Source of the DNA: Candidatus Woesearchaeota archaeon
Lineage (GTDB): Archaea > Nanobdellota > Nanobdellia > Woesearchaeales > UBA12501
Reading direction: 5' to 3'
Length of the DNA stretch: 64,000 bases
Assembly: GCA_030651375.1 (NCBI GenBank)
Contig: JAUSFM010000006.1
Location: 12,646 to 76,645, forward strand
Position numbers and translations under genes: made by a program. The notes beneath the pieces are model-generated. The model was not told where the DNA came from and searched no databases. It worked only from the letters and a program-made list of their open reading frames with translations. This document shows, one piece after another, positions 13,236 to 61,237 of this stretch (position 1 is its first letter; the number at the start of each line of letters is the position of its first letter).

Positions 13236-13236
13236 G

Positions 13237-15447: not shown

Positions 15448-15470
15448 TCACGGTTCTTCTTTTCGGCGGT

Positions 15471-15544: not shown

Positions 15545-15574
15545 TTTTGGTTATGTAGAAGCGTGCGAAGCGTT

Positions 15575-15707: not shown

Positions 15708-16760
15708 TTATTGCGGTGCCTTTGCCATATACTCTCCCAAATCTCGTTTGAGAACATCACCGGTAACCATTCCATTAAGCAAGGGCATGTCTGCCTGCGG
15801 ATGAAGAAAATCAACAATGCCCGGTCGTTGGCTTTCAACACTTCTGCGCACGCCGCGATGCAGTGTTTCAGCCAGTGTGCCGTATTTTAATTTGTCAGGA
15901 TCAATCTTCCCTTCCGCGATCAATGCTTCAATCAGCAGGCGATAGTTTTTTCCAAACTGAAAGAAATACGTGCCGCCCTCGACGACAACCGGCCGCCATT
16001 CGTTGCCGACTTTACCTTCCAAACAATGTTCTGGATCCTTGCGCATATCTCCAATTGTTCCTGCAGAACTGTCGGCGTGCTCGCCGAAAATAAGGTCGCC
16101 GACCTTTGCTTTTCTCCCCTCGAAATATTCCTGCAATTCCGGCTCCGTGCCGTTGAGATATTGGATGAGCTGGAGCGTATTTTCCTGCACTAATCGGTAG
16201 TCTTTCCCTCCTACGTTTCGTGTGCCGCTAAAATAATTCGGGCCAAGCCCATAATAAAATTCAGCCAACGCATTCAGCGCAATGGTGCCAAGGTTGACTA
16301 GTTGTGCATGAATCTGGTAAATGCCACTGTTCTGAAAGCGTGCCATGGCAAGTTCATCTTCAAATTTGAGATGTCTTTTGAGCTTTTGATCACTTGGCCA
16401 TAACCTGCGCGGGTATCCCCGTACGATATTGAATCGGAGAAGCTGTTTCCATACATCTTTATCACTTCCCGTGCCATACTCTTCCCGTCCGGGCCACGAA
16501 TAGCCAAGGTTTGCATCTACCGGATGCACACACCCCAAGCGGACCTCTTCGGGGAGTTTACGAAAAAAAATATCAATGGCACGGTACGTCTCTTCCATTA
16601 GTGCCGGATCAATTATCTGGTTATCATCAGTAAGTCCAGAAATTCCAAACTGGCCTTCATTCTCAATCAGAATCGTCGCTTCTCGTTCCCGCTCTCTCTG
16701 CGTTCCGGTTTGAAAGCGGTGTGCGTTAAAAGAAGGAATGCGTAATTCGGCAGCGCACAT
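15708..16760 (-). CDS. 2-oxoglutarate/Fe(II)-dependent oxygenase (isopenicillin-N-synthase-like family)
   Basis: HxD in FGEHADSS and distal TLHRGV...QRPGIVDFLHP resemble the facial-triad and 2OG-binding motifs. Confidence 0.55.
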   Translation of the reverse strand: MCAAELRIPSFNAHRFQTGTQREREREATILIENEGQFGISGLTDDNQIIDPALMEETYRAIDIFFRKLPEEVRLGCVHPVDANLGYSWPGREEYGTGSDKDVWKQLLRFNIVRGYPRRLWPSDQKLKRHLKFEDELAMARFQNSGIYQIHAQLVNLGTIALNALAEFYYGLGPNYFSGTRNVGGKDYRLVQENTLQLIQYLNGTEPELQEYFEGRKAKVGDLIFGEHADSSAGTIGDMRKDPEHCLEGKVGNEWRPVVVEGGTYFFQFGKNYRLLIEALIAEGKIDPDKLKYGTLAETLHRGVRRSVESQRPGIVDFLHPQADMPLLNGMVTGDVLKRDLGEYMAKAPQ

Positions 16761-16792
16761 GATGCTTTCTGCTTTTATTTACTATAAATAGT

Positions 16793-18481: not shown

Positions 18482-18578
18482 ACTGTTGGTGAATGGGTGC
18501 GGTTTTATAATGATTATTATGGGGCGCTTGCTATTTTTGAGCAGAACATTTTTAAGCATTCCATCCTTTTTTGGTCTG

Positions 18579-18965
18579 ATGGCGGTGAATGCGCGTGAGC
18601 AGGAAGCAGGGTTTCGTGAGTGGCTCGAAAAAATAAACACCAGCAACAAGCTCATCATTGTTGAAGGAAAAAAAGATGCACATGCCTTGTGTTCGCTCGG
18701 TGTCAACAACCATGTTGTGATGCTCAGCAAAAAGCCACTCTACGCGGTTGTCGAAGATGTTGCCGAAAAAACAACCGACGTCATCATCCTTACTGACTTC
18801 GACAAAAAGGGGAAGGAATTATACGGCAAACTCAAAAAATCACTCATCGCCCACGGCGTACAGGTAGACAACACGTTTCGTGAATTTCTGCAGAACACCG
18901 GCATCAGCCACATCGAGGGTTTAAAAACACACGTGCAAAAATATATAAAGGGGCAGGAACTTTAG
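18579..18965 (+). CDS. Small Toprim-domain protein (COG1658/RNase M5-like)
   Basis: LIIVEGKKDAHAL and VIILTDFDKKGKELYGKL motifs. Start at ATG 18579; the upstream part of the ORF overlaps the primase. Confidence 0.75.
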   Translation: MAVNAREQEAGFREWLEKINTSNKLIIVEGKKDAHALCSLGVNNHVVMLSKKPLYAVVEDVAEKTTDVIILTDFDKKGKELYGKLKKSLIAHGVQVDNTFREFLQNTGISHIEGLKTHVQKYIKGQEL

Positions 18966-18971
18966 AATTCT

Positions 18972-19829
18972 ATGGATGGACGTATCAAAACAGTTGTACT
19001 GCTTGGATTCCTGAGCGCCCTCATGCTCGGCATCGGTCGCTTATTGGGCGGATTTCAGGGACTGACTATTGGGTTAGTCTTTGCACTCGTTATGAACATC
19101 GGCAGCTACTGGTTCAGCGACAAAATTGTGCTTGCCATCTACCGCGCCAAGCCATTTACGCAAAAAGACCAGCCGGAGCTCTACAAAATCGTCAAAGAAG
19201 TGGCTGAAAAAGCGCAGCTGCCCATGCCCAAATTGTATATCATCCCTTCGCCAGCACCAAACGCATTTGCCACCGGACGAAATCCGAACCACGCGGCTGT
19301 TGCTTTTACCAACGGCATCCTCACCCTGTTAAACAAAGACGAGTTGCGTGGCGTGATTGCTCACGAGCTTTCACACATTAAGAATAGAGACATCCTCATC
19401 ACCACCATCGCTGCAACCATCGCTGCAGTGATTTCCTACGTCGGCATGATTGTGCGCTGGGGCGCCATCTTTGGCGGCTTCGGTGGGCGTGACAATCAAA
19501 GAGGCGGATCGGGTGGCATACTTCAATTTTTGGTCTTGGCAATTCTCGCTCCCTTGACTGCAACAATCATTCAGCTTGCCATTTCCCGCGCGCGCGAATA
19601 TCAAGCAGACAAAACAGGGGCAGAAACACTGAAGGATGGAAAACACCTCGCGTCGGCACTTGACAAACTACACGGCAGCGTTTCCAAACACCCGCTCACT
19701 TTTGGCAACGCGCAGACATCAAGCTTATTTATCGTCAACCCATTCAGCGCGCATGGACTCATTGCATTGTTCAGCACGCACCCACCGGCTGCTGAAAGAA
19801 TTAAACGGTTGAAGGGAATGAAGTTTTGA
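18972..19829 (+). CDS. htpX: Zinc metalloprotease HtpX
   Basis: HELSHIKNRD (HExxH), four TM segments, and AREYQADKTGAE. Confidence 0.88.
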   Translation: MDGRIKTVVLLGFLSALMLGIGRLLGGFQGLTIGLVFALVMNIGSYWFSDKIVLAIYRAKPFTQKDQPELYKIVKEVAEKAQLPMPKLYIIPSPAPNAFATGRNPNHAAVAFTNGILTLLNKDELRGVIAHELSHIKNRDILITTIAATIAAVISYVGMIVRWGAIFGGFGGRDNQRGGSGGILQFLVLAILAPLTATIIQLAISRAREYQADKTGAETLKDGKHLASALDKLHGSVSKHPLTFGNAQTSSLFIVNPFSAHGLIALFSTHPPAAERIKRLKGMKF

Positions 19830-19869
19830 TAATTCTTTTTTTAACCATTTTTTAAGCATACTTTTCTGT

Positions 19870-20022
19870 TCATCTCTTCTTTGGTATCTTCTGCCCCTTG
19901 TGCTGGTCATGCACATGCTGCGCAAGCGCCTTCACATTCTTGTGGCAGTGGGGGCATTTTCCTTCCTCTGTCGGCTTGACATATCGGGGAAGTATTCCGA
20001 GTTTTGCGCGTGTCGTTGACAT
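19870..20022 (-). CDS. Small (50 aa) putative zinc-finger protein
   Basis: Below the track threshold. ATG 20022 to TGA 19870 gives MSTTRAKLGILPRYVKPTEEGKCPHCHKNVKALAQHVHDQHKGQKIPKKR, with a CxxC-x9-H-x4-H pattern. Divergent from msrA. Confidence 0.35.
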   Translation of the reverse strand: MSTTRAKLGILPRYVKPTEEGKCPHCHKNVKALAQHVHDQHKGQKIPKKR

Positions 20023-20096
20023 ATTCTGTTTTTTGTTTTTGCCATTTAAATTGTTTATGCAAAAATCATATAAATAACACCTTCTTTTTCATTTCT

Positions 20097-20573
20097 ATGG
20101 CGTCACAAACCGCAACCTTTGCCGCCGGATGCTTCTGGGGCGTTGAAGCAATGTTCAGAAAAGTAAACGGCGTGCTCCAGACAACCGTCGGCTACACCGG
20201 TGGCACAGCACCAAACCCGACGTACGAAAAATTGTGCACTGGCACCACAGGCCACGCAGAGGCAGTGCAAGTTGTTTTTGACCCCCACATCATCTCGTAT
20301 TCCGAGCTCGTTGATTTTTTCTGGACTATACATAATCCAACCGTGTTGAATCGGCAAGGGCCTGATATTGGCTCGCAGTACCGCTCGGCGATTTTCTGCC
20401 ACAACGACAAACAAAAAAGAGAAGCAGAGGCGTCAAAGGCAAAGCTTGAAAAATCAGGACGATACAAACAACCCGTGGTCACGCAGATCGTTCCTGCACG
20501 GCAGTTCTACAAAGCAGAAGAATATCATCAACGCTATCTCGAAAAAAAGGGGCTGGCATCTTGTCATATCTAA
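20097..20573 (+). CDS. msrA: Peptide methionine (S)-sulfoxide reductase MsrA
   Basis: ATFAAGCFWGVEAMF active-site motif and GYTGG. Start at ATG 20097. Confidence 0.92.
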   Translation: MASQTATFAAGCFWGVEAMFRKVNGVLQTTVGYTGGTAPNPTYEKLCTGTTGHAEAVQVVFDPHIISYSELVDFFWTIHNPTVLNRQGPDIGSQYRSAIFCHNDKQKREAEASKAKLEKSGRYKQPVVTQIVPARQFYKAEEYHQRYLEKKGLASCHI

Positions 20574-34200: not shown

Positions 34201-34998
34201 TCAACTCGTGAGTCGTTCTCCAGACCAGCCATCCATGAGCCGGCACTGGCCTGCCTGATTCTGCTCGTCAATATAAACCACTTGGTAGCGTGTTTCCTCG
34301 ATGTTTTGAACGCCGGTTGCTTCAGACAGTTTTCCACTGCTCAGCTTATCCACCACCCAATACTCTGCCTGTCCCACCCGTTCAGCAAGCCAGCCGGGTG
34401 AAAACTCCGCCAGCATCACGGTGTAATACTGTCCCTGCTTAATGTCGGGCGTCAATGACGGATTTTCAGCAACCGCTTCCAGCGTGTCGCCGTTGATGTA
34501 GGAAAACAAAGACTTTCCATTTGGTAAATATATATTTTTCATGTCGCTCATGACTGTTTCTTTTCGAAGGGGACTCGCGATATTTTTTGCCTGAAACGTA
34601 AAGCATGGCACGCATTGAATGCGGGGACCGAACGGCAGGGGGAGGCGATATCTTCCACCGCCCCATTTTTCCCAGCAGCGCTTCATCAGATTGGTGACCT
34701 GAAATTCTGCCTTGGTCGGGTCTTTGTCTTCAATTACTTCCGGCTCTTTGGGAATGCACGCAGCAGGAATATCCTTGGCAATTTCCCCTTCTTTCAGCTT
34801 GTTGAAAAAATAATTTTGCACACGGAGCTGCTCAAAGCAGGATTCATCGCTTGCTATTGGTTCGCAGCCCTTGAAAAAAAATATGAGAAAGGCTGTGATG
34901 GCGATGGCTGAAATAATAATAAGGATGTGCTCTTGGATAAAGTCAAGAATTCCTCCCTGCGCTTTTTTTCCGTTAAACAACACGTGCATCACCCGCAT
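34201..34998 (-). CDS. Pilin-like (class III signal) protein
   Basis: MRVMHVLFNGKKAQGGILDFIQEHILIIISAIAITAFLIFFF. First ATG is 34998. Confidence 0.6.
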   Translation of the reverse strand: MRVMHVLFNGKKAQGGILDFIQEHILIIISAIAITAFLIFFFKGCEPIASDESCFEQLRVQNYFFNKLKEGEIAKDIPAACIPKEPEVIEDKDPTKAEFQVTNLMKRCWEKWGGGRYRLPLPFGPRIQCVPCFTFQAKNIASPLRKETVMSDMKNIYLPNGKSLFSYINGDTLEAVAENPSLTPDIKQGQYYTVMLAEFSPGWLAERVGQAEYWVVDKLSSGKLSEATGVQNIEETRYQVVYIDEQNQAGQCRLMDGWSGERLTS

Positions 34999-35248
34999 CA
35001 CTCTCGTTTTTTAGTGCAAGGCAGCACGCATTGGTTGGCGATGCACATTTCAGGTGCGCAACGTCGCTGTATCCTATTGGGCATTGTTCGAACTGGCAGG
35101 TGGTGCCCTGCATACTTTCACACGCAAACACGCCTGCGCTCGGCTTGGCAAGATAATTTTTGACAATGATAATCAGCACAATAAGAAGTACGATTCCTAT
35201 AACAATTTTCTTCAGCTCCTCTTGCGCTTTTTTGTTCTGGTACATCAT
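34973..35248 (-). CDS. Six-cysteine mini-pilin, paralog A
   Basis: MMYQNKKAQEELKKIVIGIVLLIVLIIIVKNY, then C-x7-C-x4-C-x11-C-x6-CC. Confidence 0.65.
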   Translation of the reverse strand: MMYQNKKAQEELKKIVIGIVLLIVLIIIVKNYLAKPSAGVFACESMQGTTCQFEQCPIGYSDVAHLKCASPTNACCLALKNESDAGDARVV

Positions 35249-35418: not shown

Positions 35419-36408
35419 TCACTTCTCAGCGCGCACAAGAACATATTCAAGAAGCCCGTCCTTATGCGCTTTGTACAACGAATAATCACACCAGAATCCA
35501 AGCATGGTTGCAAACCTTCCCCTAATTTTTCTCTGGCGCGCAACATTGTCCGGCCGCTGCGCTTCGTGATAATAGCCCGGAATGGTTTGCGCCCCCACTT
35601 TTTGTATGGTGACGTTGCGGAAGCCGGCGTTTTCCAGCTGGGCCTTGTATTGTTCTGGTGTTACCACATTTGCTTTTGGGCACCGCCAAAGAAACCGTGC
35701 CGCATGCACCTTGATTTTTTCCATGATTTTTTTTGGCTGGTGATTCACCAGATAATCAGCAATGCTCACCACACCTCCCGGCTGCAGCACACGGTATGCT
35801 TCACGCATAAAATCTTCGCGCGTGTTGAAATGCACCGTGCCCTCAATACTGGTGACGTGCGAAAATGTCGTATCTGGAAATGGCAACTTGGTTGCCGTGC
35901 CATGGTGCGCAGTGATATGCTTGGCAAGCCCTGCTTTTTGCGCCCGCTGTTTTGTCCATTCAACATGCTTCCACGTCACATCCAATGCCTCAATTGTACA
36001 TCCAAACGTGGTGTGCAAGAAAACATCCTGCGTGCCCATGCCGCAGCCGACGTCAAGCAGCCTGCTTTCTTTTGTAAGGCCGGCCATGGTGCCGATTCTG
36101 TGCACAAGATTTTCTGCTGCGGCAACATAGTCAGTTATACCATCTTCCCACAGGCCGAAGTTCAGGTAGCCGTTGTGGTACTCGCCGAAATTTTCAGCCC
36201 CAACGCCATAGAATTTTTCAACGCGTGACTCGTGGGTTTTGGTGCCCCATGCCGTGCGGGTGCTCGGTACCTGTTTTGCTTTTTTTTGCTTTAATTGTTT
36301 TTGTTTTAATCGTTTCACTCTGCCACCTAAAAAAGAGAAAATGTGGGGGGTATTTAATGATTTCTTTTCAATCAACTTTAAATACCCATCTACCTTGTGT
36401 TCTCTCAT
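35419..36408 (-). CDS. Class I SAM-dependent methyltransferase
   Basis: LLDVGCGMGTQ (motif I), VSIADYLV and an overall CMAS/Methyltransf_11-like layout. Start ATG 36408. The alternative ATG 36516 would add a hydrophobic N-terminus but overlaps the plus-strand ORF. Confidence 0.7.
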   Translation of the reverse strand: MREHKVDGYLKLIEKKSLNTPHIFSFLGGRVKRLKQKQLKQKKAKQVPSTRTAWGTKTHESRVEKFYGVGAENFGEYHNGYLNFGLWEDGITDYVAAAENLVHRIGTMAGLTKESRLLDVGCGMGTQDVFLHTTFGCTIEALDVTWKHVEWTKQRAQKAGLAKHITAHHGTATKLPFPDTTFSHVTSIEGTVHFNTREDFMREAYRVLQPGGVVSIADYLVNHQPKKIMEKIKVHAARFLWRCPKANVVTPEQYKAQLENAGFRNVTIQKVGAQTIPGYYHEAQRPDNVARQRKIRGRFATMLGFWCDYSLYKAHKDGLLEYVLVRAEK

Positions 36409-36430
36409 CAACCAAAAAAGAGGCGATACT

Positions 36431-36682
36431 ATGAATCCAAAAAAAGTTGCAGTAACAGTGGGCATTATGTTTGCGGTGTTCCACACGCTGGGCGTGCTGC
36501 TGGTGCAGAAAGGCATGCTGGACTACTGGGGCAAGGTGCACCTTGTTTCAATCCAACACACGGTTCAACCCTTTATGCTCATGCCGTTTGTGCAGGGCAT
36601 TGTGACTGCGATTGTTTCCGGCCTTGTTGTTGGCTGGGTATTTGCAACCGTATGGAACTGGGTGGATAAGAAAGTCAAATAA
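36431..36682 (+). CDS. Small 2-TM membrane protein (83 aa)
   Basis: MNPKKVAVTVGIMFAVFHTLGVLLV...GIVTAIVSGLVVGWVFATVWNWV. Confidence 0.45.
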   Translation: MNPKKVAVTVGIMFAVFHTLGVLLVQKGMLDYWGKVHLVSIQHTVQPFMLMPFVQGIVTAIVSGLVVGWVFATVWNWVDKKVK

Positions 36683-36710: not shown

Positions 36711-36962
36711 TTATGCTATTTCCTGTCCGGGATTCTCTGCCTGGCAGCACACCTGCCCTTCAGTGCATGTTCCGCTGGACACCATATAATAACCAGATTC
36801 ACATTTGTCTGGCATGCACTGCCCGCCCATGCTCTTGCACTGCGCAGCGTTCGCCACTGGTGCATACACATAGTTCTTGATGATAATAACCATCACAATA
36901 ATGACGACGAGAATAAGAAGAATGTTTTTTAAATCAGTCCACTGGGCTTTTTGGTTGGCCAT
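36711..36962 (-). CDS. Six-cysteine mini-pilin, paralog B
   Basis: MANQKAQWTDLKNILLILVVIIVMVIIIKNY, then C-x6-C-x4-C-x11-C-x5-CC. First ATG is 36962. Confidence 0.65.
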   Translation of the reverse strand: MANQKAQWTDLKNILLILVVIIVMVIIIKNYVYAPVANAAQCKSMGGQCMPDKCESGYYMVSSGTCTEGQVCCQAENPGQEIA

Positions 36963-36970
36963 AGTCTCGC

Positions 36971-37261
36971 TCACACCGAACAGCAGGCGCCACTGTCGCA
37001 GTCTGCATTGACGATACTTCCACCGCGGTTTGTGCAGTCACTTTCATCTCGGCAGATGCGCGGGGTTCCCGGGATTTCACAGGCGTTGCCGGTAAATGCT
37101 TCCTGCTGCTTGCCGACTTGGGTGCTGCTCTCGCGCAGTTTGCCCGTAAAAATAACGATGATGACAACGAGCACAATCAGCGCGAGCACCGCAACAATAA
37201 TAGTGTTAATGCTCATGCTTTGCGCTTTGGTTCCTGCTGCACTTTTTTGCTTCAGCGTCAT
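36971..37261 (-). CDS. Six-cysteine mini-pilin, paralog C
   Basis: MTLKQKSAAGTKAQSMSINTIIVAVLALIVLVVIIVIFTGK, then C-x8-C-x5-C-x11-C-x4-CC. ATGA overlap with paralog D. Confidence 0.65.
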   Translation of the reverse strand: MTLKQKSAAGTKAQSMSINTIIVAVLALIVLVVIIVIFTGKLRESSTQVGKQQEAFTGNACEIPGTPRICRDESDCTNRGGSIVNADCDSGACCSV

Positions 37262-37521
37262 GATTCATCTCCTGCAATAACACAGCACACGCTGCCCTGC
37301 TGGCAGTCGCTGGAGAATGTTGCTGACTGAATCATGTTCTGTGGGCATGTTTCGCGGCATTCACCCTGATATTTTCCAAACGACAGCAGGCCGCCGCACT
37401 TGGTCACATCCTTGCTCGTCTGGGCAGTCTTGCCCGTGAAGATAATTATAACTACCACAATAATAACGAGTGCAAGAAGCATGGCAACAATCTGATTCCA
37501 GGCAAGTTCAGCCTTTTTCAT
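37258..37521 (-). CDS. Six-cysteine mini-pilin, paralog D
   Basis: MKKAELAWNQIVAMLLALVIIVVVIIIFTGK, then C-x12-C-x3-C-x13-C-x5-CC. Confidence 0.65.
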   Translation of the reverse strand: MKKAELAWNQIVAMLLALVIIVVVIIIFTGKTAQTSKDVTKCGGLLSFGKYQGECRETCPQNMIQSATFSSDCQQGSVCCVIAGDES

Positions 37522-37532
37522 GTCGTGCCTTT

Positions 37533-37808
37533 TTATCCTTCAATATTCTGCTCGGTACCTGCGATGTTCAGGCAGCAGATGCCTTGGTCAGGGCAGGTGT
37601 AGCCGCTCATGACTTTCTGCTCTGCACCGCCGCATTCACTGGCATCAGCAATGCACACTGCATTGTTGCCGAGCGTTGCGCAGTTCTTGGTCTCCTTAGT
37701 GAAGCCGCCAATCTTGCCGGTAAAAATCATGGCAAGAACGACAAGAACAAGCAATGCAAGAATTGCAATGATAATCGCGTTCAGGGAAATTCCTTGTGCT
37801 TTTTTCAT
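37533..37808 (-). CDS. Six-cysteine mini-pilin, paralog E
   Basis: MKKAQGISLNAIIIAILALLVLVVLAMIFTGK, then C-x8-C-x6-C-x12-C-x5-CC. GAGGTG lies 8 nt upstream of ATG 37808. Confidence 0.7.
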   Translation of the reverse strand: MKKAQGISLNAIIIAILALLVLVVLAMIFTGKIGGFTKETKNCATLGNNAVCIADASECGGAEQKVMSGYTCPDQGICCLNIAGTEQNIEG

Positions 37809-37907: not shown

Positions 37908-38438
37908 TCAATAGCACACTTTCAATTCCAGCGTCAGGTCAAAGAGCAGCGGCTGGGCAGCGGTTTCAAACGTGGGGCAGGCGTCGTTGAACTGTTCACT
38001 TTTTACTGCCCCTTCCAGCAAATCTTCCTGAGTGCCTGGTTCTCCACGAAGCAGGCGAAGCTGGTACTGATGCTGGAACCTGCCGAGCATATTATCAAGA
38101 ATTCCTTTGAGGGTTGTTTTTAAATAATCACATGAGCTCATGACTGTTTGTGTCGCATCAGTGCAGGTCATGCTTCGCGCAAAGCCGCAGTCCTGTATCA
38201 CATCAGCCATTTTCTCGTCGTTGCACGTGCTCACCACCTCGACAATCGACGTGATAATTGTTTTGGGCAGTTCTCTTCGCTGGAATTCCTCCTGCGTCTT
38301 TTTCGGCGGCTCGGCGGAATATTTCGCAAGGTACACAATTCCAATAGTGATGAGTATAACTACCAGCGCAATGCCCATGATCTCCGCTTGTCCGCGCTTG
38401 TTGAATCTGTTGTTAAGTTTGTTTTTCATTTTCATCAT
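37908..38438 (-). CDS. Pilin-like (class III signal) protein
   Basis: MMKMKNKLNNRFNKRGQAEIMGIALVVILITIGIVYL. Confidence 0.65.
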   Translation of the reverse strand: MMKMKNKLNNRFNKRGQAEIMGIALVVILITIGIVYLAKYSAEPPKKTQEEFQRRELPKTIITSIVEVVSTCNDEKMADVIQDCGFARSMTCTDATQTVMSSCDYLKTTLKGILDNMLGRFQHQYQLRLLRGEPGTQEDLLEGAVKSEQFNDACPTFETAAQPLLFDLTLELKVCY

Positions 38439-38453: not shown

Positions 38454-39053
38454 TTAACTAAACCGTGTGCGGTATGCTTCAATAACCAACATTCCAAGAG
38501 CATCTTTGCGTACGCTCCCCTTGGTCTCGTCGCGAAGTGTAATCGGAATAAAGGTGGGGAATTTTTCCCACGATACTGTATTTTCTTCAGGATGGTTATC
38601 ATACAGCGTGATGCGGTTGAGGGCAGCAGGCGCATCACCTATGGCCTCTGCTGTTTCAAACGGAATGGTGGCCGTGTCTGGCTGCGGGAACACTTGTTCT
38701 ACATATATCGTACTGTCACGCAACTCTGTTTCATACAACAAAAACGCAGTTTCATCAAATCCGGGCTTGTTCCTATTCACCTTGTTCGCAAACGCCACCA
38801 CCTTATGCAGGTCAAAACAATTCTCATTTATCACGCCGTTTTCGCTGCAGGCCAGCTCGGGGTAAAACGAAACTTTCAATGCAATGCGCACGGCTTCGCG
38901 CTCAAAGCTGTCTGCTGCGGAACGCTGCATGGATGTTTTCTGGTACTGCGCATACAGCACCAGCCCGATGCCTAACAAGATAAAAAAGGCGAGCAGTACC
39001 ATGATTGTTTCGCCCATCTGCATCTGCGCCCTGCGCGCTTGTGTGTGTTTCAT
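38454..39053 (-). CDS. Pilin-like (class III signal) protein
   Basis: MKHTQARRAQMQMGETIMVLLAFFILLGIGLVLY. Confidence 0.6.
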   Translation of the reverse strand: MKHTQARRAQMQMGETIMVLLAFFILLGIGLVLYAQYQKTSMQRSAADSFEREAVRIALKVSFYPELACSENGVINENCFDLHKVVAFANKVNRNKPGFDETAFLLYETELRDSTIYVEQVFPQPDTATIPFETAEAIGDAPAALNRITLYDNHPEENTVSWEKFPTFIPITLRDETKGSVRKDALGMLVIEAYRTRFS

Positions 39054-39071: not shown

Positions 39072-40211
39072 TTAGTACAGTGCCGGACAGCTGTTCAGCA
39101 CCGCGTCTTTATTTGCTTGATTAGCAGCTTTCAGCCGCTGCGTAAATTCTTCACTCTTGACTGAAATGGTAATCTCATTGTTCTCGTTTGCCGCCATCGC
39201 CGCATCTATGCTTGCCAGTGCAGCACCTCCTTGCGCCGCAATGACAGCGCACTGCTGCATTTCTGTGCTCGTGATGGCCGCACCACCAGAATTGTAAAAC
39301 GCCTGCAATGCATCAGCCCGATCGCGTGAAATTTCAACCACCTGTGTCGCCCGGCGCAGTGCCCTGCTCATAAGGCACGTGTACATATTCTGGTCTTTTG
39401 CAAATACCGCGCCGATAAACGAGGGAAAGCCAAGCGTAAATGGCGAACCGCCAGACTGTTCCGCTTGCCAACCAGTTCCTTGTTTCTGATAAAACGCCAG
39501 CGGACTGCTCTGTAGGTTTTCCTCGTCACCAATCAAATTTTCATTCACTACGACTGCGCTGACTTGTGCGTCGCCAACTCCTGCGAACGAAGGCGGAAGT
39601 GCCGGCGGTTGTGTGGCTATGTCGTCTGAATTGATAATAAATTTCACAAACGGATTATTCTCATAGTTCAGGGTTGTCACGTCGGTTGGTTGGATAAACG
39701 CATAATCAATTTTCTCACCTTCCTGCGCCAGCGGAAAATCAAGCAGCGTGCTTATTTTTTCCTGCATCGGCCCAAAATTCACAAAATAATATTTTATCGA
39801 TGGAGACGTCATCATAATCATGGTATTCGTGCGCATCGGCAGGTCAAAACTCATCGTAATGGTCAGAAGCTTTTTCGTGGCCAGCTCTGCCGGCGCAAAA
39901 ATCAGCACCGTGCCGCTCGCAATGCGCTGGTCCATCACGCGGTATTCAGTGCATTCAAACTGAATGGGCACATCAGCGATGTCAATCGGCTGCTTTGCTC
40001 CAGGAGAAACTCCTCTGCCGGAAAAAATCAGCTCCAGCTGGGAGGCAAGCTCAACGCCGAGCTTATTTTTTGAAAGCTGCTGCTGATAACTAATGACCGT
40101 CATGAAAAAAAACAGGATAAGCCCGCCGGCTATCATAATGAAAATCCAGTTGAACTGCACTTCAACAATGCCTCGTTTTGAACATCGTGGAAATGGTTTG
40201 ATGCGTTTCAT
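39072..40211 (-). CDS. Large pilin-like (class III signal) protein
   Basis: MKRIKPFPRCSKRGIVEVQFNWIFIMIAGGLILFFF. Start ATG 40211 lies 4 nt after the upstream stop. Confidence 0.6.
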   Translation of the reverse strand: MKRIKPFPRCSKRGIVEVQFNWIFIMIAGGLILFFFMTVISYQQQLSKNKLGVELASQLELIFSGRGVSPGAKQPIDIADVPIQFECTEYRVMDQRIASGTVLIFAPAELATKKLLTITMSFDLPMRTNTMIMMTSPSIKYYFVNFGPMQEKISTLLDFPLAQEGEKIDYAFIQPTDVTTLNYENNPFVKFIINSDDIATQPPALPPSFAGVGDAQVSAVVVNENLIGDEENLQSSPLAFYQKQGTGWQAEQSGGSPFTLGFPSFIGAVFAKDQNMYTCLMSRALRRATQVVEISRDRADALQAFYNSGGAAITSTEMQQCAVIAAQGGAALASIDAAMAANENNEITISVKSEEFTQRLKAANQANKDAVLNSCPALY

Positions 40212-40215
40212 GGTT

Positions 40216-43200
40216 TCATAACCGCTCAAGCTCGTCAAAAAGATCGTCATCACTTTTTTGAGCTGCACGCTCGTGCTCTTCAGCTTTTGCATTCTTTTGC
40301 TGCGCAGGCGCTTGGTTTTGTGGGGGAAACATTTTTCCTGGCACCACGCGCGGCCGTGCCGGCTCGTGCTCTTGTTTTCGCTGCAGTGCCGTGAGCGGAA
40401 GCCATTCGCTTACCGCGTCAGGAAGTTGTTCAACGACTTTGCCTGCCAGCTGGGTGCCTGCTTTTGCAGCAGTGCGCACGAGATGTGCTGCGGCATGCGC
40501 CGCATGCATCGGCCGGAGGAACGTCACTGGCTGGCCTGTTTTTCCCTTAGACTGAAAGACCCCTGTTTTTTTGGTGAAGCGGTCAATAACCGTGCCGCGT
40601 TCGCGCTCACGCGTTTCAACACGCTGGCGCCGTCGTGCAAGCCCTGTTTCCTGCACGCGCTGTGCAGCTTCAACTGCCTTTTTTTGCTCGGTATCACCCG
40701 ATGAAATCGGTTTGAAAGGTGCGATAAGGGCGGGTTTCGGCACCAATGTTGGTGACGTGGATGCCAAGAAGCCCGCCCCTCCACCAATAAGAAGTATTCC
40801 TATAATAAAAAGAATATTTGATTTTACAAACGCCCACACCGCGCTTGGCTGCGCTTGCTCTGTCTTTTTTTCCTGCGTGCCGCCTGGCAGCACACCGCAT
40901 CGTCCGAGGTTGCAAATGCCTGACGTGCAGTCATCAGCAGAGGCGCACGCTCTTCCCGGTTTGCATTTGTTTGGGCATGCAGTGCCGCAGTCAACATCGC
41001 TTTCATTTCCATTTGCTGCATTGTCTGCACAGGTTGGAAGTTGGCAGGTTTTGGTTGTTTTGACATCGCAATAACTGCTGATACAATCGTTGTCAAATCC
41101 ACACGCCTTGTTCAAGTCGCAGCGTGAGCACACTAATCCACCACAGTCAGAATCAGTTTCATCGCCGTTCTTGCGCACGTCATCACATTTCGGCGGTACA
41201 CAGCGGCCTTCAAGGCAATATTCTCCCAGACAATCAAAATCAGTCTGGCAGCTATCGCCTTCTCCACATGTGTTGCCACAACTTCCTCCACAGTCCGTGC
41301 CGGTTTCGTCGCCATCTTTGATGCTATTGCTGCACGTCTGGGGCACCGTTACAACAATTCTTTCCCTGCCGGATGCCTTGTTGCCGAGCGTGTCCGCCAC
41401 TTCCCAGCACATTTCACGCGTGCGGTGAACAGATACTGGCTGGGCAGCGTCAACATGGTTTGAGGGCGTGCAGGTTTCTGCGCTGCCGGTTCCGATTGTC
41501 GTGTTTGTTGCGCCCAGCAGATTTTCACCACCAAGCCCGAACAAGAATGTTGTGTCATCACAGCCGCTTTCATCATCACACACTGGAGTCACTTCAACGG
41601 TTCCGGGCGATGACTTTTTCTGCAGCACCACTTCTGGCGGGTCATGCTCAAGGCAGTCCGGATGCTGCGGGTCATAATTCAGGATGAGCGGTGATGCAGG
41701 CCCTTCAAGCCCGACGTTGTTGACCGCAGAAATGATAATCGTGTGGGTGAATGCAGGAACCTTTCCGCTGCTTCCTCCCGTGTCGTCGGTGTTGGTTTCT
41801 GATGCCGGCGCCTTGGCTTCTATGCTCGGCAATTTTCCCGTGCCGTCCCTGCCGCCAAAGGTTCCGTTCTTTTCAGTTTCTGCAACAAAATAACGGAACA
41901 TCCTGATGCTGGACTGCGTATCCGTTGCAGTAACCGCAAGATCAAGATCAAATCGTTCAGGAGTGCAGCTCGTGGTCGAGCCGTTGAAGCTTGGGGCATT
42001 AGGCGGGCTGGTGTCAATCAAAAAAAGATGCTCTTTTACCGAGCGCTGCTGCGTGCCAGCAGTGCTGCTTTCGCACGTTACTTGCATGGTGTATCTTCCA
42101 TCGGCAAGCGTGCCCAGATCAGCGCTGTGCGTTTTGCCCGGATTGCGTTCATCCTCCAAAAACGCGGTCTGGTTTTCCAGCGTGTAATAACAGCGGGAAA
42201 TTTTGTTCGTGGTAAAATTGAGTGTTGCAATGTTACTGTTTGACTCGCTTTTTGGCGATGAAATCTCAATATGAATTGGCTCGGTCAAATCAATGGTGAC
42301 TCCTGCAGGAACTTCTTGAGATAGCTGTCCCGTTCTGTCTTCACACCGCACAAAAAATACTTTGCTTAATTTTGTTTCCGGCTCCGGAAGTTCAATCTTC
42401 TGGTGGTTTATTGTTTTATAGGAACCAAATTCTTCACGTGCATAGCCGTCAAACGGGCTCATGCTGTCGAACGGCAGCCCTCCCTGCAGTGCATACTTGC
42501 ATTGGACGTCTTCATTTGCCTCAACAACAAGGTCTGAAAAAAAGTGGTGGTCATCAGGAATCTCGACAAGCAGATTGGGATCAAACGCCGCTTTCCGGAT
42601 GGTTGGTGGTTCAGTATCGACGTATATTTCCGCTTTAGTCTGGCCAATTTCTCCCTCGGGTGTCTGGCAGATAAGGAAAAAATTGTTTCCGCGCCGGTTT
42701 GGCGTCAGGTCAATAAACGGCTCGCGGGACAGCGTTGGAAACGCATGCGTCGGCCCAAACATATTTGACGAGACCATCCCCTGCAGCAGAAACCGGAATT
42801 TTGGATCACGCTGGCTGTACTTGCACATGGTGTTGAGTGGCGCGTCATTCTTGAACGTGCTCACCTCAACCGTTACATTTCTCTCACGGGAAGCGCCCAG
42901 TCGCGGTCGCGTCACCTGTATTTTCATTGTTTCATAATCAACTGCAAAAAACTGGCGGAATGTTGCTTCATTACCCACCATGTCTTTGGCGTGTATCTCC
43001 ACGACGTAAAATCCTGGCGGTAGCGCATGGCTCGGCTCGAGGCGCCAGCGTTCTCTGATTTCCCGCGACGGGATGCCGTCGATAATGTCAATAAACCCAC
43101 CGGGAGGAATTGCTTCTTCAGTGAAGTTTTCAAACTCAGGTGTTTTTTCCTGCACAAAAAAGATGCGTCCGGTCATCAACGACACGGGCTCGTCAAAGGC

Positions 43201-51938: not shown

Positions 51939-52448
51939 TTATCGAAGCTGAATGAGTGAAACAAGCTGGTGCCAGAGCTTGGTGTTCGACGCGGCGATTT
52001 TGACAAAATTTGAGCCGGTGTCAGCATCTTTTTTGCAGGTAACAAGTTCACGCTCATCAGCTGCAAGGTTCTGCTCAATCTTTTGGCAGACATCGATGTC
52101 AATGTGCTGATATTTGATCGTGCTTATCGCGGCACGGTCAATTGCACCATTTTCACGCTTTGCAAGAATCATCTTGTCGCCACTTTTGACAATGCTAATT
52201 CCGCGCACTTTTTTTGTCGGCCCGGAAAGAGCCAAGAACGTGTCAACACTTATATCTCCACTGTCTGCGCTTATTGCACCCCGTATCCGGTCAATGGCTT
52301 CTTGAGTAACCGTCCCTACATTTTCAAGTGCTTCGTTAACCCCCTCTTTGATGTCATCAAAAACCCCCTCTAAAAAAGCATGCACAGGATATGCAAGAAG
52401 AATAAATACCAGTACTATAATACTTCCACTAAACAGTCTGTTTTTCAT
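51939..52448 (-). CDS. Secreted hypothetical protein (169 aa)
   Basis: Sec signal MKNRLFSGSIIVLVFILLAYPVHA. ATGA overlap with the upstream gene. Confidence 0.55.
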   Translation of the reverse strand: MKNRLFSGSIIVLVFILLAYPVHAFLEGVFDDIKEGVNEALENVGTVTQEAIDRIRGAISADSGDISVDTFLALSGPTKKVRGISIVKSGDKMILAKRENGAIDRAAISTIKYQHIDIDVCQKIEQNLAADERELVTCKKDADTGSNFVKIAASNTKLWHQLVSLIQLR

Positions 52449-55400
52449 CCTTCCACCTTAAATGCCTTCGGCGAGTACAGGAGCGCGTTGAGGCGTTTGC
52501 TATACCACACATTTGCTGGTTCGGTTGGCTTGCCGAACGGCTTTAATTCCAAAAATCCAGAGCCTGTTCGTGCCCGTTCCGTATCCCATACACCATTGCA
52601 GCCATGGAACTCTTCTCCCTTTCTTGCAATTTCCTGTCTGAACGCTTCCTGATACTTAAAGACGCCGAGGCATTGAGTAAAGAGTGTCTCACCATTAACG
52701 CTCTGCTGTTTATTGTATGCCGTATCAAGCGCTGACAACACGCTGTTTTCCGCGGCTGGCGATTTGATTATTGTCTCTGGTTCAGTGAGCGCAAGAGCAA
52801 CAATCACTTGATTTTTTGCAAGGGGAATTTCACTCAACAATCCTTTGTAGAGTGTGTTGAGCAACGCATGCGTATTCGTCTGAAGTACGCAGGCGTACGC
52901 AGCTCCCCCATTTTCAAAGAAGTGTGTGACATCGCCCGACAGTGCCGCGCTGAACTCCTTGTTCACCAACACTTCTTCAGGCGTATCGCAATAGATACTA
53001 TACGGAAGCCCTGCGCGGTCAACGATGCGCGTATCAGGAAGGTGCGCAAGTACACTTGCCAGTTTTACCGGCCTGCTTGTCCATGTTCCAGCATCGCAAA
53101 ACACATCTTCGCCCGCATCACCGCTGTTCGCCGGGCCGAAGAAACCGTCAGGCTTGCAGGTCATTTCGGTACGCGCTCCAGCGGCAACTGCATACGCGCA
53201 TGCATCTCCCGGGCAGACGCGTGAACCGTCGCTAAACTGGTTTGTTTTTCTATCTCCCACTTTCCATTCGCCATTGCTGCAGAACAACGCTTTCTCTTGA
53301 TTGGCGCTGAAGAAGCGGCCATCAAAGTTTCCTTGCACACAGCGCGCTCCATCCCAACATTCGGTTGCTGCGCAGCAGTCAGTTTCTACTGATCGTGGTA
53401 CATTTTCTGCGTTGATGCCGATTTCTCTAAACAGTTGGGCAGATGGCTCACTTTTTTCAACAACCTGCCCTTCTGCAAACTTCCAGATATTTTCCAGCGA
53501 ACAGAACGCATTGCCGAATTTGGCTGCGCATGACGGCTGGGAGTTTTGGGCACTGGTAACCAGCGGCCCTTCGTTTGCTTCACTCGATGGATTTGTTTTC
53601 TGCAATTGTGCAAGCTCAAAATCAGCAAGGGCGCATCCGAGAAAAGAACCTTGCGTGTGCAGTATCTTTTGTGGGAGATGCGCGTACATCTGTACATTTC
53701 TGATAGTGTTGTTTTTTTCTCCCTGATTGGTGAAATCGACGGTTAATCGCTTCTCGCGTGTTGAAGGAATTGCCAGCTTAAATCGCTGAAACGCGCCGGT
53801 ACTGTATTCTACCGTTGAAAGATCATGTGGCTGCCGGTGCTCGTCAAAATAACGAATCCGAAGGCGATCACCGGTTTTTTTAACCTGAACCTCTGCATCA
53901 ACAATAATTACTAATCCTACTGGGTTATTTACTTCCATTGAGCGCGCTATTTTTCCAGGAAAAAGAACCAATTCTTCGCCTCCATTAATACGATTTTGGA
54001 TTACAAAATTTTGTGATTCTTTTCCCGAGTTCACTTCAACACTCACGCCCGATCCAAAAATAGATGATACCGATGATATCTGGCCTGGTGCATTATGTGC
54101 ATCAAAAAATGAATTTCCGCCTGCCTTGTTTTGTTCAACTGCCTGATTCGCAATACACGCCTGTACTACACCACCATCACTCATTGAAAAGAACTCATTC
54201 TGCCCATCACCACCACAGCAGGCGCCTGGATTGCTAAACCGGTTGTTTGCTTTCCGCACCAGCCATGTTCCTGCTTTTTTTTCTTCGCAGATAAATGGAT
54301 TGGCATTTGCATCCAGTTCTGATTGGCCGCAGCCGATAAATTCAGCAAGTTCAGAATGCTGATCGACATCTCTTTGTTTGATGACCCTTAGCCGTTCATT
54401 CCGAGGGGTGTTCGGGCATTTTAAATCATCTTTATTCTGAATAGAATCTTCATCAATGTCTTCTAATCGTTCTGCCGCTGTCAAATCTTTGCAGCACAAC
54501 ATGCCGCCGGGCGCGTCGATGAATTGTTCATTCCCCCCTCCGAAACCAAATCCACCAACACTCCCTTTTGCCTGCACAAACCCGCACGCAAATTCGTTTG
54601 TGTCACACAATTTTTCTTCATCCTTGATGAGCACAATCCGCGGCTCACGCTGAATCGGAAGCGCATGCCCATTCTCCTGCACCACACAACAGGCCAACTG
54701 TTTAAATTCATTGGTTTGCGCATCTTTGATTGCGCCACACATCACCGGCGTTGATTCCTCACACTGTACAGTGCGTTGTTCCTGTTGTTTCGGATCTTCT
54801 TTTGGCGGGAACTGAAACGGAGTAATTGTTGCTTCGCCGACAGCAAGATTGTTCAACGTGCAGCACTGCACAAAATCAAGGCCTGTTTTATCCACCGGGT
54901 CGTCTTTTAGTTCTTTTGCGCCGCAGACAACCTGGCCTTCACCGCACTTTTGTAGCGGATCAGTACTGATTGAATTTGCGAGATTAACCCGCGCGATAAT
55001 CTCCGGTCTATCAACTTTGTCATCCGGCTTGAGGGTTCCCGGCGGACATTTTTGTTTTGTTGCATCATCCAATTTATCAAATTCTTCGCGGGTGATGCTT
55101 ACATCTCTACCATCTATCGTGCACCAATGATCCCCTGCTTGATCTGCTGCAACACATGCACCATCCAGATCACTTGCTGTAATGAGGCATACCTGATTGT
55201 CCCTTTTGTTATCATCTTGACTGAATGGCGCTGCCCGCGTGTAACATTGATTACGTAGTACACGTTCTGTTGTTGGAAGGATACAACAATCATTGGAACC
55301 AAAACCTCGGTCAATATGTCTCCCCCCCTTATCTTCACAATCTCCTGTCCACCAATCAATCGAACAATCCCTCGTGCTACCCTCAACTATTTCTGGAAAT

Positions 55401-55510
55401 GTTTTAATAAAACAGGCACCTTCTACAGCCGGAACAAAAGAGAGTACCATCCACAAACAAAGAAAAATGAAAAGTAGTATCCCTGAAACTAACCTACCCT
55501 CTTTTTTCAT
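52445..55510 (-). CDS. 1021-aa secreted Cys-rich protein with repeated C...C...CC modules; first gene of block B
   Basis: Signal MKKEGRLVSGILLFIFLCLWMVLSFVPAVEG. Six CC doublets: DCCILP, QCCTLN, ACCVVQ, LCCKDL, ACCGGD and DCCAAT. Start at ATG 55510. Confidence 0.65.
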   Translation of the reverse strand: MKKEGRLVSGILLFIFLCLWMVLSFVPAVEGACFIKTFPEIVEGSTRDCSIDWWTGDCEDKGGRHIDRGFGSNDCCILPTTERVLRNQCYTRAAPFSQDDNKRDNQVCLITASDLDGACVAADQAGDHWCTIDGRDVSITREEFDKLDDATKQKCPPGTLKPDDKVDRPEIIARVNLANSISTDPLQKCGEGQVVCGAKELKDDPVDKTGLDFVQCCTLNNLAVGEATITPFQFPPKEDPKQQEQRTVQCEESTPVMCGAIKDAQTNEFKQLACCVVQENGHALPIQREPRIVLIKDEEKLCDTNEFACGFVQAKGSVGGFGFGGGNEQFIDAPGGMLCCKDLTAAERLEDIDEDSIQNKDDLKCPNTPRNERLRVIKQRDVDQHSELAEFIGCGQSELDANANPFICEEKKAGTWLVRKANNRFSNPGACCGGDGQNEFFSMSDGGVVQACIANQAVEQNKAGGNSFFDAHNAPGQISSVSSIFGSGVSVEVNSGKESQNFVIQNRINGGEELVLFPGKIARSMEVNNPVGLVIIVDAEVQVKKTGDRLRIRYFDEHRQPHDLSTVEYSTGAFQRFKLAIPSTREKRLTVDFTNQGEKNNTIRNVQMYAHLPQKILHTQGSFLGCALADFELAQLQKTNPSSEANEGPLVTSAQNSQPSCAAKFGNAFCSLENIWKFAEGQVVEKSEPSAQLFREIGINAENVPRSVETDCCAATECWDGARCVQGNFDGRFFSANQEKALFCSNGEWKVGDRKTNQFSDGSRVCPGDACAYAVAAGARTEMTCKPDGFFGPANSGDAGEDVFCDAGTWTSRPVKLASVLAHLPDTRIVDRAGLPYSIYCDTPEEVLVNKEFSAALSGDVTHFFENGGAAYACVLQTNTHALLNTLYKGLLSEIPLAKNQVIVALALTEPETIIKSPAAENSVLSALDTAYNKQQSVNGETLFTQCLGVFKYQEAFRQEIARKGEEFHGCNGVWDTERARTGSGFLELKPFGKPTEPANVWYSKRLNALLYSPKAFKVEG

Positions 55511-55541
55511 TCGTGCCACCCACCTGTAGCGTGGCTTTTTC

Positions 55542-55549
55542 TTTATAAA
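55542..55549 (-). promoter_or_regulatory. TATA box for block B
   Basis: TTTATAAA lies about 33 nt upstream of ATG 55510, in the 52-bp gap after the Rpp30 gene. Confidence 0.4.
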
Positions 55550-55562
55550 GTTATTTTTGTTT

Positions 55563-56084
55563 TCAGGCGATTTTCTGTTCCAGCGCTGTTTTCGCCTCTC
55601 CAGCGGCCATTCCAATAAGTTCGCCGAATGCCAGCATGTCATGGGCAGCGCGCATTTCATACAGGTTTGTTGCGCCAGAAATCAGGAGCATGGGCACCTT
55701 ATATCTTCTGCAGAGCATCACATTCTGGCGCATTCTGCCCAACAGAATGCCCCGCGCCGCGCCCTGCGCCGTGAGAATCGTATTGAAATTAAACGCAATC
55801 ATTTTTTCTTTGTCGTGCGCGAGTGCTGCAAGCACATGGTTGAAGCCGGATTTTCGCTGGTGCGTGCCATCGCGTTCACCATGCACTTCAAGATTGTAAA
55901 AAATGTGTATCGGGCTCTTTTCAATGGCGTGGCGCGTTTTTTCCGGCACGCCTGCGCTGTTCATAATCAGATCTCTACGTAGGTTTTTTCCGACGACATA
56001 AACTGTTTCGTACCCCAGTTTTTTGCCGAGTGCCTCAAACGGTGCGGTTTGGTGTTCTTTGTCCGGAATCACGATGTCAATCAT
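55563..56084 (-). CDS. RNase P protein component 3 (Rpp30-like, PHP/TIM-barrel)
   Basis: Size (173 aa) and GFNHVLAALAHDKEKMIAFNF...LCRRYKVPMLLISGA resemble Rpp30. Recognition is by eye only. Confidence 0.55.
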   Translation of the reverse strand: MIDIVIPDKEHQTAPFEALGKKLGYETVYVVGKNLRRDLIMNSAGVPEKTRHAIEKSPIHIFYNLEVHGERDGTHQRKSGFNHVLAALAHDKEKMIAFNFNTILTAQGAARGILLGRMRQNVMLCRRYKVPMLLISGATNLYEMRAAHDMLAFGELIGMAAGEAKTALEQKIA

Positions 56085-61172: not shown

Positions 61173-61237
61173 ATATCTTTTTTATTCTCTCGTTTCTTTC
61201 CAAAAAGTATATAAACGAAGCAGCACTTTTTGCTGTT

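Follow-up and report, generated by a model that had tools for sequence, protein, structure and literature searches.

Candidate Pilin-Like Proteins with a Predicted Beta-Defensin-Like Six-Cysteine Head in a Conserved Gene Cluster of Woesearchaeota

A 64,000-nucleotide stretch of DNA from a Candidatus Woesearchaeota archaeon (GenBank assembly GCA_030651375.1, contig JAUSFM010000006.1, positions 12,646–76,645 of the forward strand; this whole stretch is called the window below) encodes five small paralogous proteins, termed here mini-pilins A to E. On balance, we favor the reading that these proteins belong, as pilin-like subunits with class III processing, to a conserved Woesearchaeal surface apparatus, and that they display a beta-defensin-like head serving in adhesion or in binding to the envelope of a target cell.

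Organization and Expression Signals of the Mini-Pilin Genes

Four of the five genes form a tandem array in the order E-D-C-B, with E as its first gene, while A is a detached fifth paralogue 1.5 kb away; all five are on the minus strand. Their products follow a common plan, with a short basic N-terminus ending in K-A-Q (K-A-E in D), a hydrophobic helix of about 24 residues, a short linker, and a head with six cysteines, the last two of which are adjacent. Mini-pilin E (37533–37808, 91 aa) has the leader MKKA|Q, a helix ending in IFTGK, and cysteine spacing 8/6/12/5+CC. Mini-pilin D (37258–37521, 87 aa) has the leader MKKA|E, the same helix end, and spacing 12/3/13/5+CC; mini-pilin C (36971–37261, 96 aa) has a longer leader (…GTKA|Q), again a helix ending in IFTGK, and a head of the 'CEIPGT' type with spacing 8/5/11/4+CC. 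The helices of B (36711–36962, 83 aa from its ATG, or 87 aa from an alternative GTG start at 36974) and A (34973–35248, 91 aa) end in KNY, and their cysteine spacings are 6/4/11/5+CC and 7/4/11/6+CC, respectively. Genes D and C overlap by ATGA, the gap between E and D is 11 nt, and 8 nt separate the stop codon of C from the ATG of B.

An earlier note on this DNA, made from the sequence alone, had described the five genes, the ATGA overlap, and the plan of leader and helix, all of which are confirmed from the open reading frames (ORFs). The cysteine pattern that it proposed, C-x(6-12)-C-x(3-6)-C-x(11-13)-C-x(4-6)-CC, is matched exactly by the spacings of the five proteins. The short acidic tail that it described after the head stands only as a tendency, the mean tail charge being –0.5; the tail of C consists of only two residues.

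The 84-bp gap upstream of E carries two putative expression elements. A TATA-box-like TTTATAAA (37862–37855, minus strand), with an A-rich stretch upstream of it, lies 46 nt before the ATG of E, its function being suggested by its sequence; a Shine–Dalgarno-like GAGGTG (37821–37816, minus strand) lies 7 nt before the same ATG. Both were noted earlier and both are kept in two other genomes, L001 and L003, where TTTATAAA or TTTATATA is found at the equivalent place upstream of the first mini-pilin gene, and GAGGTG is found 6–7 nt before its start. The accompanying claim that these are the strongest expression signals in the locus is not borne out, since the gene for a 1071-aa protein likewise has TTTATAAA plus AGGTGG upstream. 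The four tandem paralogues would be transcribed from one conserved promoter. Major-subunit status of the mini-pilins may be suggested by the promoter and the Shine–Dalgarno sequence, its sole basis, which are conserved yet not unique in the locus.

Leader and Hydrophobic Helix

Analysis of 101 family members shows that position –2 relative to the putative cleavage site is occupied by Lys or Arg in 100% of sequences, position –1 by Ala, Gly, or Ser in 98% (Ala 73, Gly 19, Ser 6), and position +1 by Gln in 81%; the commonest leader is the four-residue M-K-K-A. Position +1 is followed by G-[LMI]-S-[LIM]-N and then by the almost invariant I-I-I-A-x-L-A-L-I-V-L-V-V-L…I-F-T-G-[KR]. Pairwise identity averages 56% in the helix vs 28% in the head (15% if cysteines are disregarded), so that the helix is far more conserved than the head, a pattern seen in pilins. 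Generally, the archaeal class III signature comprises Lys or Arg at –2, Gly or Ala at –1, and Gln at +1, the latter being typical of EppA substrates in Methanococcus. As the conservation at –1 and +1 exceeds that expected from the positive-inside rule, we infer a processing site at this position.

Similar leaders, short and basic, with Lys or Arg at –2, Gly or Ala at –1, and Gln at +1, are found in known archaeal class III proteins, e.g., the Epd pilins that EppA processes in Methanococcus maripaludis, and the substrates of PibD in Sulfolobus. With archaeal type IV pilins, the mini-pilins also share a long N-terminal helix that is more conserved than the head, and the clustering of paralogues with other leader-bearing genes. 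They differ from these pilins in the head, which has only about 40 residues and three predicted disulfides, whereas the head of archaeal type IV pilins is a beta-sandwich of about 100 residues or more; in the polar residues at +2 to +6 (QG-x-SLN), with no Glu at +5; and in lacking adjacent ATPase and platform genes. Flp/Tad pilins and Geobacter PilA-N are, like the mini-pilins, very small subunits dominated by the N-terminal helix; however, they have essentially no globular head or disulfide-rich module, depend on other peptidase families for processing, and have no significant match in sequence. To our knowledge, no pilin described so far carries a globular (non-helical) head of such small size. 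A match to a known pilin or flagellin family, which the earlier note had named among the findings that would speak against its view of the mini-pilins, was looked for in Pfam and NCBIfam and not found above threshold. If the mini-pilins are filament subunits, they would represent a type IV filament of new design, in which a 40-residue module stapled by disulfides sits on a pilin helix.

Fold of the Six-Cysteine Head

The head of mini-pilin B matches the Pfam model Defensin_beta (PF00711) over its whole length, with E = 2e-5 and a score of 24.8–25 bits vs the gathering score of 21; no Defensin_beta match is seen in Pfam for E, D, C, and A. When the 101 family members are compared with Pfam singly (E ≤ 0.01), AtDEF-like is matched by seven, Inhibitor_I68 by five, Defensin_beta by three, and Defensin_beta_2 by two. 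Inhibitor_I68 is the family of the tick carboxypeptidase inhibitor (TCI), which has a double beta-defensin fold.

The AlphaFold2 model of B, built from a 101-sequence alignment, has a predicted local distance difference test score (pLDDT) of 76, a helix at residues 6–44, and strands at 47–51, 58–60, and 70–75. In the Foldseek comparison of this model with the PDB, places 1–17 are all taken by beta-defensins, including AvBD3 (7LZL), hBD-2 (1FD3), hBD-1 (2NLP) and mutants, AvBD11, and hBD-3. These matches extend over 34–41 columns, with TMt of 0.59–0.79, root-mean-square deviation (rmsd) of 1.3–2.5 Å, 21–36% identity, and probability up to 1.0; for the leading ones, the rmsd is 1.3–1.9 Å and the identity 30–36%. 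The model of E (20-sequence alignment, pLDDT 70) consists of a helix and three strands, with the same order of elements as in B.

Profile searches of PDB sequences retrieve proteins with the same fold. The full-length family profile has its best match in the big defensin 2RNG (E = 0.006; profile positions 23–80, from the hydrophobic part through the CC), while matches to TCI, crotamine, gallinacin-11, and beta-defensin 104 are non-significant (E 0.11–2.2). The head-only profile, derived from a 72-sequence alignment with all six cysteines invariant, finds four chains below E = 10 among 177,635 PDB sequences, namely TCI in three entries (E about 5e-4 to 9e-4) and DLP-1 of the platypus (E = 6e-3). 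Knottins, conotoxins, EGF domains, and cis-defensins are absent from the PDB profile matches. A knottin, or inhibitor cystine knot, was considered for the head and rejected, as no knottin is found by Foldseek or among the PDB profile matches, and the terminal CC and the cysteine spacing fit beta-defensins.

The consensus of the beta-defensin framework is C-x(4-8)-C-x(3-5)-C-x(9-13)-C-x(4-7)-CC, and the spacings of the five mini-pilins (6–12/3–6/11–13/4–6, then CC) are counted as fitting it; in beta-defensins, the cysteines of this framework are paired C1-C5, C2-C4, and C3-C6. Features other than cysteines are also common to the heads and beta-defensins, i.e., G-G-x-C before the second cysteine and G-x-C before the fourth. 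The five heads are homologous to one another, since a single head hidden Markov model (HMM) scores all of them at 25–45 bits (E 44.9, A 40.6, D 27, and C 24.9 bits). Hence, the six-cysteine head is predicted to be beta-defensin-like, directly in the case of B and via the homology of the heads in the other mini-pilins. The earlier view of the head as a knottin-sized fold not described before is, in substance, mistaken, given the results of Pfam, Foldseek, and the PDB profile searches.

The net charge of the cysteine core is, on average, –2.0, ranges from –9 to +2, and is positive in only 9 of the 101 members. Beta-defensins and membrane-active defensins are cationic; as the heads are anionic, a classical antimicrobial role is unlikely for them.

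With vertebrate beta-defensins (hBD-1, hBD-2, AvBD3), the heads share the six-cysteine framework ending in CC, with matching spacing and both glycine-containing motifs; the model of B likewise has a short helix followed by a three-stranded sheet. In contrast to these proteins, the mini-pilins are archaeal, anionic, and fused to a class-III-type leader and a helix of transmembrane length rather than to a Sec signal and a propiece, and most members of the family score below the Pfam thresholds. Non-antimicrobial proteins with the beta-defensin fold, such as TCI, crotamine, and DLP-1, demonstrate binding functions of this fold beyond membrane attack, and TCI and DLP-1 share C-x-x-K-G-G-x-C … G-Q-x-C-C with the heads; however, they are secreted animal proteins without a hydrophobic helix, and a protease-inhibitor or toxin function is not indicated for the mini-pilins. 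The big defensins of horseshoe crab and molluscs (2RNG) resemble the mini-pilins in having an N-terminal region that is hydrophobic and, at the C-terminus, a beta-defensin(-like) domain, although the match in the hydrophobic part is of low complexity. Moreover, big defensins are cationic, antimicrobial proteins whose N-terminal domain, set free through Sec and furin processing, adopts a globular beta-alpha fold rather than a pilin-type helix of transmembrane length. In oyster big defensins, this domain is described as driving supramolecular (nanonet) assembly (PMC6805989). Finally, the bacterial cis-defensins xanthusin and actifensin, and laterosporulin, are, similar to the heads, prokaryotic three-disulfide defensin-like peptides (PMC11561630; PMC6989792); unlike the pilin-like mini-pilin fusions, they are free secreted bacteriocins.

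Distribution of the Family

A search with the profile of the five mini-pilins yields 216 homologues at E ≤ 0.01, none of which is named other than 'hypothetical'; where the source gives an organism, it is Woesearchaeota, Nanoarchaeota, or Nanoarchaeia. Among the matches listed, 107 of 120 have exactly six cysteines, so the cysteine pattern, whose loss in homologues the earlier note had set as a point against itself, is in fact conserved. The mini-pilins thus belong to a large unannotated family, with at least 216 members and no fitting Pfam or NCBIfam model.

Orthologues of every one of the five types occur in several other genomes, and they keep the cysteine spacing specific to their type. 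Orthologues of E (79–84% identity) keep 8/6/12/5, those of D (P0008, P0014, P0015, and P0031) keep 12/3/13/5, and the C type (orthologues P0010, P0016, P0019, and P0030) keeps 8/5/11/4; A has the orthologues P0004, P0017, P0025, P0026, P0038, and P0047. Due to this retention of type-specific spacings, the five paralogues appear to be old and individually maintained, and we propose that the four tandem ones represent ancient, non-redundant orthogroups.

We also surveyed tandem arrays in 49 species-representative genomes and in loci fetched by exact look-up, the related loci being found with a 20-sequence alignment. The largest tandem array of a locus comprises one copy in 13 loci, two copies in 13, three in 9, four in 12, and five in 2; with the window counted, arrays of two to five copies are present in 36 of 51 loci.

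Relatives with the same leader and helix, again in tandem, occur in L047 (3055–4399), L039, L053, and L050, where the heads have only four cysteines or none; hence, the helix family is broader than the six-cysteine head. Many of the species-representative metagenome-assembled genomes (MAGs) among L005–L053 that carry the family bear the title 'uncultured Methanosarcinales archaeon' (binchicken MAGs), and the label of one contig (L045) is Omnitrophica. Such names are probably placeholders or the result of mis-binning, as the genes present fit Woesearchaeota.

The Head Module in Other Proteins

The head-only profile has 77 matches at E ≤ 1e-3 among 1.84 billion representative proteins; its comparison with a word-indexed database of 5.8 billion sequences gave only three self-type matches and was uninformative. 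The 77 proteins include DPANN proteins that have the same leader and one, two, or three heads, and non-DPANN proteins that carry the head as 2–13 tandem repeats. Some of the latter have additional domains or other surface features. P0121 combines nine heads with a GH25 lysozyme, and P0132 combines Peptidase_M23 with four heads. P0125, encoded on a bacterial contig (L054, 6001–7164) and adjoining three more T4SS_pilin genes, has four heads and T4SS_pilin/TrbC, while in P0167, several heads follow a bacterial N_methyl type IV pilin. Several heads are also seen in the bacterial lipoproteins P0124, P0126, and P0137, and ten cationic repeats in P0122, a 'granulins-like' protein of the shrimp Penaeus vannamei (XP_027236059.1). 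As far as such domain combinations indicate, the head module is a widespread extracellular unit, placed repeatedly on pilins of three classes and on peptidoglycan hydrolases.

Genomic Context

The mini-pilin array is embedded in a syntenic cluster of about 25 kb (window 28089–52102, minus strand); almost all of its products have an N-terminus made up of a short basic stretch, [KR]-[GA], and then a hydrophobic helix. The gene order is as follows: the genes for two giant proteins of 2124 and 1195 aa, p406, p199, p176, the mini-pilin array, p266, and on to p422, p177, p455, p174, and p315. Leaders of the [KR][GA] type are found on p406, p199, p176, p266, p239, p422, p177, p174, p315, and p608. 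The order of the cluster is kept in L001, L003, L006, L014, L029, and L037 at 21–49% protein identity; in particular, the order p406-p199-p176-mini-pilin array is kept in L003, L006, L014, L029, and L037 (BLASTP E 1e-6 to 1e-57).

The genes p176 (37908–38438), p199 (38454–39053), and p406 (39072–40292), all on the minus strand, encode proteins with such a leader and a hydrophobic helix, and with no Pfam or NCBIfam match; they are candidates for minor pilin-like or accessory subunits. The 1195-aa giant has an N-terminal cupredoxin domain, and the 2124-aa giant is cysteine-rich. Taken together, the cluster looks like one conserved Woesearchaeal surface apparatus, with the mini-pilin family as a core, conserved part of it, in lineages (Woesearchaeota and Nanoarchaeota) whose cell–cell attachment biology is largely unknown. 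In the diverged genome L003, the cluster also encodes a PF11860 muramidase of 613 aa, with a class-III-like N-terminus, and a Metallophos/Lipase_GDSL/Peptidase_M15_4 protein of 1277 aa (11672–13513 and 16472–20282); the presence of peptidoglycan-directed enzymes in an archaeal cluster hints at a bacterial host or prey.

Discussion

Under the reading that we favor, the mini-pilin precursor would insert into the membrane with its N-terminus inside and its C-terminus outside. A class III (prepilin-type) signal peptidase would then cut the leader of 4–12 residues after [K/R]-[A/G/S], leaving Gln at +1, and the hydrophobic helix of about 24 residues could act as a polymerization or anchoring element. 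The C-terminal head of about 40 residues is predicted to fold outside the cell into a three-disulfide, three-stranded beta-defensin-like domain. The mini-pilins would act together with p406, p199, p176, and the 1195- and 2124-aa giants in one surface apparatus, most likely a type-IV-filament-like fibre with its surface tiled with defensin-like heads; their assembly into a filament is unproven. As the head is anionic, and as the same module is fused to peptidoglycan hydrolases and bacterial pilins, it is proposed to be an adhesion or target-envelope-binding module in contact with another (host) cell, and not a membrane-disrupting peptide.

This reading fits several published proposals. Woesearchaeota and Pacearchaeota with small genomes carry genes for large extracellular proteins that degrade murein, and they might live as episymbionts on bacteria (PMC8204110); DPANN archaea carry type IV filament (TFF) systems (bioRxiv 10.64898/2026.04.22.720090); and pili mediate contact of ultra-small cells with their hosts (PMC9938205).

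Several observations weigh against it. The pilin-like nature of the proteins, already suggested in the earlier note, stands in part: the leader motif, the conservation of the helix, and the synteny with leader-bearing genes speak for it, whereas no curated pilin, archaellin, or class III model of Pfam or NCBIfam is matched, and no ATPase, platform, or peptidase gene is found nearby. Only sub-threshold similarity to Flp1_like (E 0.019–0.03) and to the ComGC pilin (E 0.11) is seen; no solved pilin or archaellin is matched by the family profile among PDB sequences; and the classical archaeal consensus is less polar than the residues that here directly follow the putative cleavage site (Q-G-[ILM]-S-L-N). 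As for the machinery, Pfam analysis of 27 proteins of the 64-kb window reveals no TFF ATPase, platform protein, or prepilin (class III) peptidase, and a regular-expression search finds no Walker-A secretion ATPase among all ORFs of 54 loci; within ±10 kb of the arrays in 49 other genomes, no such ATPase, platform protein, or peptidase is seen either; the machinery that assembles the mini-pilins could be encoded elsewhere in the genome. As for the head, the Foldseek E-values for B are only 0.07–0.7, the fold match comes from one model of moderate confidence (that with pLDDT 76), and the model of E gives no defensin match in Foldseek. Small cysteine-rich domains can match via their cysteines alone, and some members of the family also match the plant 'AtDEF-like' model. 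The adhesive function is assigned by guilt by association, with two fusions to hydrolases and two to pilins among the ten multi-repeat proteins, of the 77, that were scanned by Pfam.

The alternative that fares best, although we consider it unlikely, is that the mini-pilins never polymerize and are membrane-tethered or bindosome-like surface proteins, the class-III-like N-terminus being a general device for export and anchoring in these DPANN archaea. Cleaved or uncleaved, they would form a lawn of defensin-like heads or a part of a non-filamentous envelope complex. Indeed, almost all proteins of the cluster carry the leader, including the 613-aa muramidase of L003, so that it does not mark filament subunits specifically; genes for an assembly ATPase or a platform protein are absent from the vicinity; and p199 has a faint, sub-threshold likeness to the bindosome protein BasB (E 0.097). 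It is also established that Sulfolobus sugar-binding proteins have class III signals and do not form long pili. However, the 56% identity of the helix, its invariant V, its I-F-T-G-[KR] end, and the conservation of positions –1 and +1 go beyond the needs of a passive anchor. An abundant structural subunit is suggested by the several conserved paralogues, which follow a dedicated promoter and a strong Shine–Dalgarno sequence, and bacteria have the same head fused to bona fide pilin domains.

Whether the mini-pilins are filament subunits, tethered proteins, or toxins is a separate matter from the fold of the head, and here the resemblance to beta-defensins might be an artefact of the cysteine pattern, the head having some other fold, and AlphaFold and the HMMs being driven by the C…C…C…C…CC framework. 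The lack of a defensin match for the E model, the weak Foldseek E-values of B (0.07 or higher), the low number of members matching Defensin_beta (3 of 101, with the plant AtDEF-like model matched by 7 of 101), and the head identity of only 15% without cysteines would be consistent with such an artefact. Still, the PDB-wide profile searches gave beta-defensin-fold chains only, knottins, conotoxins, EGF domains, and cis-defensins all being absent; the beta-defensin positions other than cysteines (G-G-x-C before the second cysteine and G-x-C before the fourth) are shared; and the match of B has an rmsd of 1.3–1.7 Å over the entire domain of 36–38 residues, at 30–36% identity. We regard an artefact as improbable.

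More improbable still is that the mini-pilins are secreted defensin-like toxins ('archaeocins') or host-attack peptides, whose hydrophobic N-terminus would be only an export signal or pro-domain, as in big defensins, and whose released heads would kill or permeabilize competitors or hosts together with the cell-wall hydrolases of the cluster: while the cysteine pattern and the predicted fold are beta-defensin-like, the best full-length PDB match is the big defensin 2RNG, with an alignment reaching its hydrophobic region, tandem paralogues of small peptides resemble bacteriocin loci, the orthologous cluster has muramidase and M15 genes, the module is fused to GH25 and M23 hydrolases, and bacterial defensin-like bacteriocins (laterosporulin, actifensin) do exist (PMC6989792), the heads carry a net negative charge (mean –2, range –9 to +2), there is no Sec-type cleavage site after the hydrophobic segment, with the F at –3 of the conserved F-T-G apparently disfavored under the –3/–1 rule, this segment is of transmembrane length and is more conserved than the 'mature' part, and no immunity or ABC-exporter genes are seen adjoining the array.

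Returning to pilin-like subunits with a beta-defensin-like head, one may consider where such a head comes from. The bacterial defensins described are cis-defensins (cysteine-stabilized alpha-beta, CS-alpha-beta), while trans-defensins (alpha, beta, big, and theta) are restricted to vertebrates and some invertebrates (PMC11561630). The literature that we searched contains no description of the mini-pilin family, of a cysteine-rich DPANN pilin with such a head, or of trans- or beta-defensin domains in Archaea or Bacteria. A bold and rather doubtful proposal is that the six-cysteine head represents a true branch of the trans-defensin (beta-/big-defensin) fold in prokaryotes, widespread as an extracellular binding module on pilins and cell-wall hydrolases in DPANN archaea and in Candidate Phyla Radiation (CPR)-like and other bacteria; homology of the heads with animal defensins, as opposed to convergence, is unproven. 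If the proposal is true, the beta-/big-defensin scaffold of animals would have a prokaryotic origin or counterpart, and ultra-small episymbionts would build 'defensin-coated' pili for contact with their hosts. The heads would bring a beta-defensin-type scaffold into Archaea and Bacteria, and its origin and ancestral function (binding rather than killing) would become testable.

Other Features of the Window

The 1071-aa protein (52445–55660, minus strand) has no Pfam match and contains about five copies of a four-cysteine module, C-x6-13-C-x15-29-CC. According to the earlier note, the terminal CC and the C...C...CC spacing of the head recur as internal modules in this protein and at the N-terminus of the 2124-aa one. 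Such a recurrence is not supported: a regular-expression search finds the six-cysteine pattern absent from both the 1021/1071-aa and the 2124-aa proteins, and the head HMM, applied to the whole window with --max and E ≤ 100, matches only the five mini-pilins. A recurrence of the head in these giant proteins was thus rejected; the four-cysteine module of the 1071-aa protein is distinct and is not detected by the head HMM.

Between paralogue A and the array, the window has a methyltransferase insert that is absent from L001. The first approximately 280 nt of the 365-aa methyltransferase ORF (35419–36516, minus strand) are overlapped by a plus-strand ORF for a small membrane protein (36239–36682); the start of the methyltransferase is probably over-called, since its domains begin near residue 123.

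Ordinary features place the window in Archaea. Its RNA genes are an archaeal signal recognition particle (SRP) RNA (61238–61507, plus strand; Archaea_SRP, 135.6 bits) and tRNA genes for Leu(CAG) and Arg(CCG), listed with 61090–61173 and 15470–15545, both on the plus strand. The window also carries genes for RNase P p30, a Hef-type helicase-nuclease, RPA, ribosomal proteins, and SecY.

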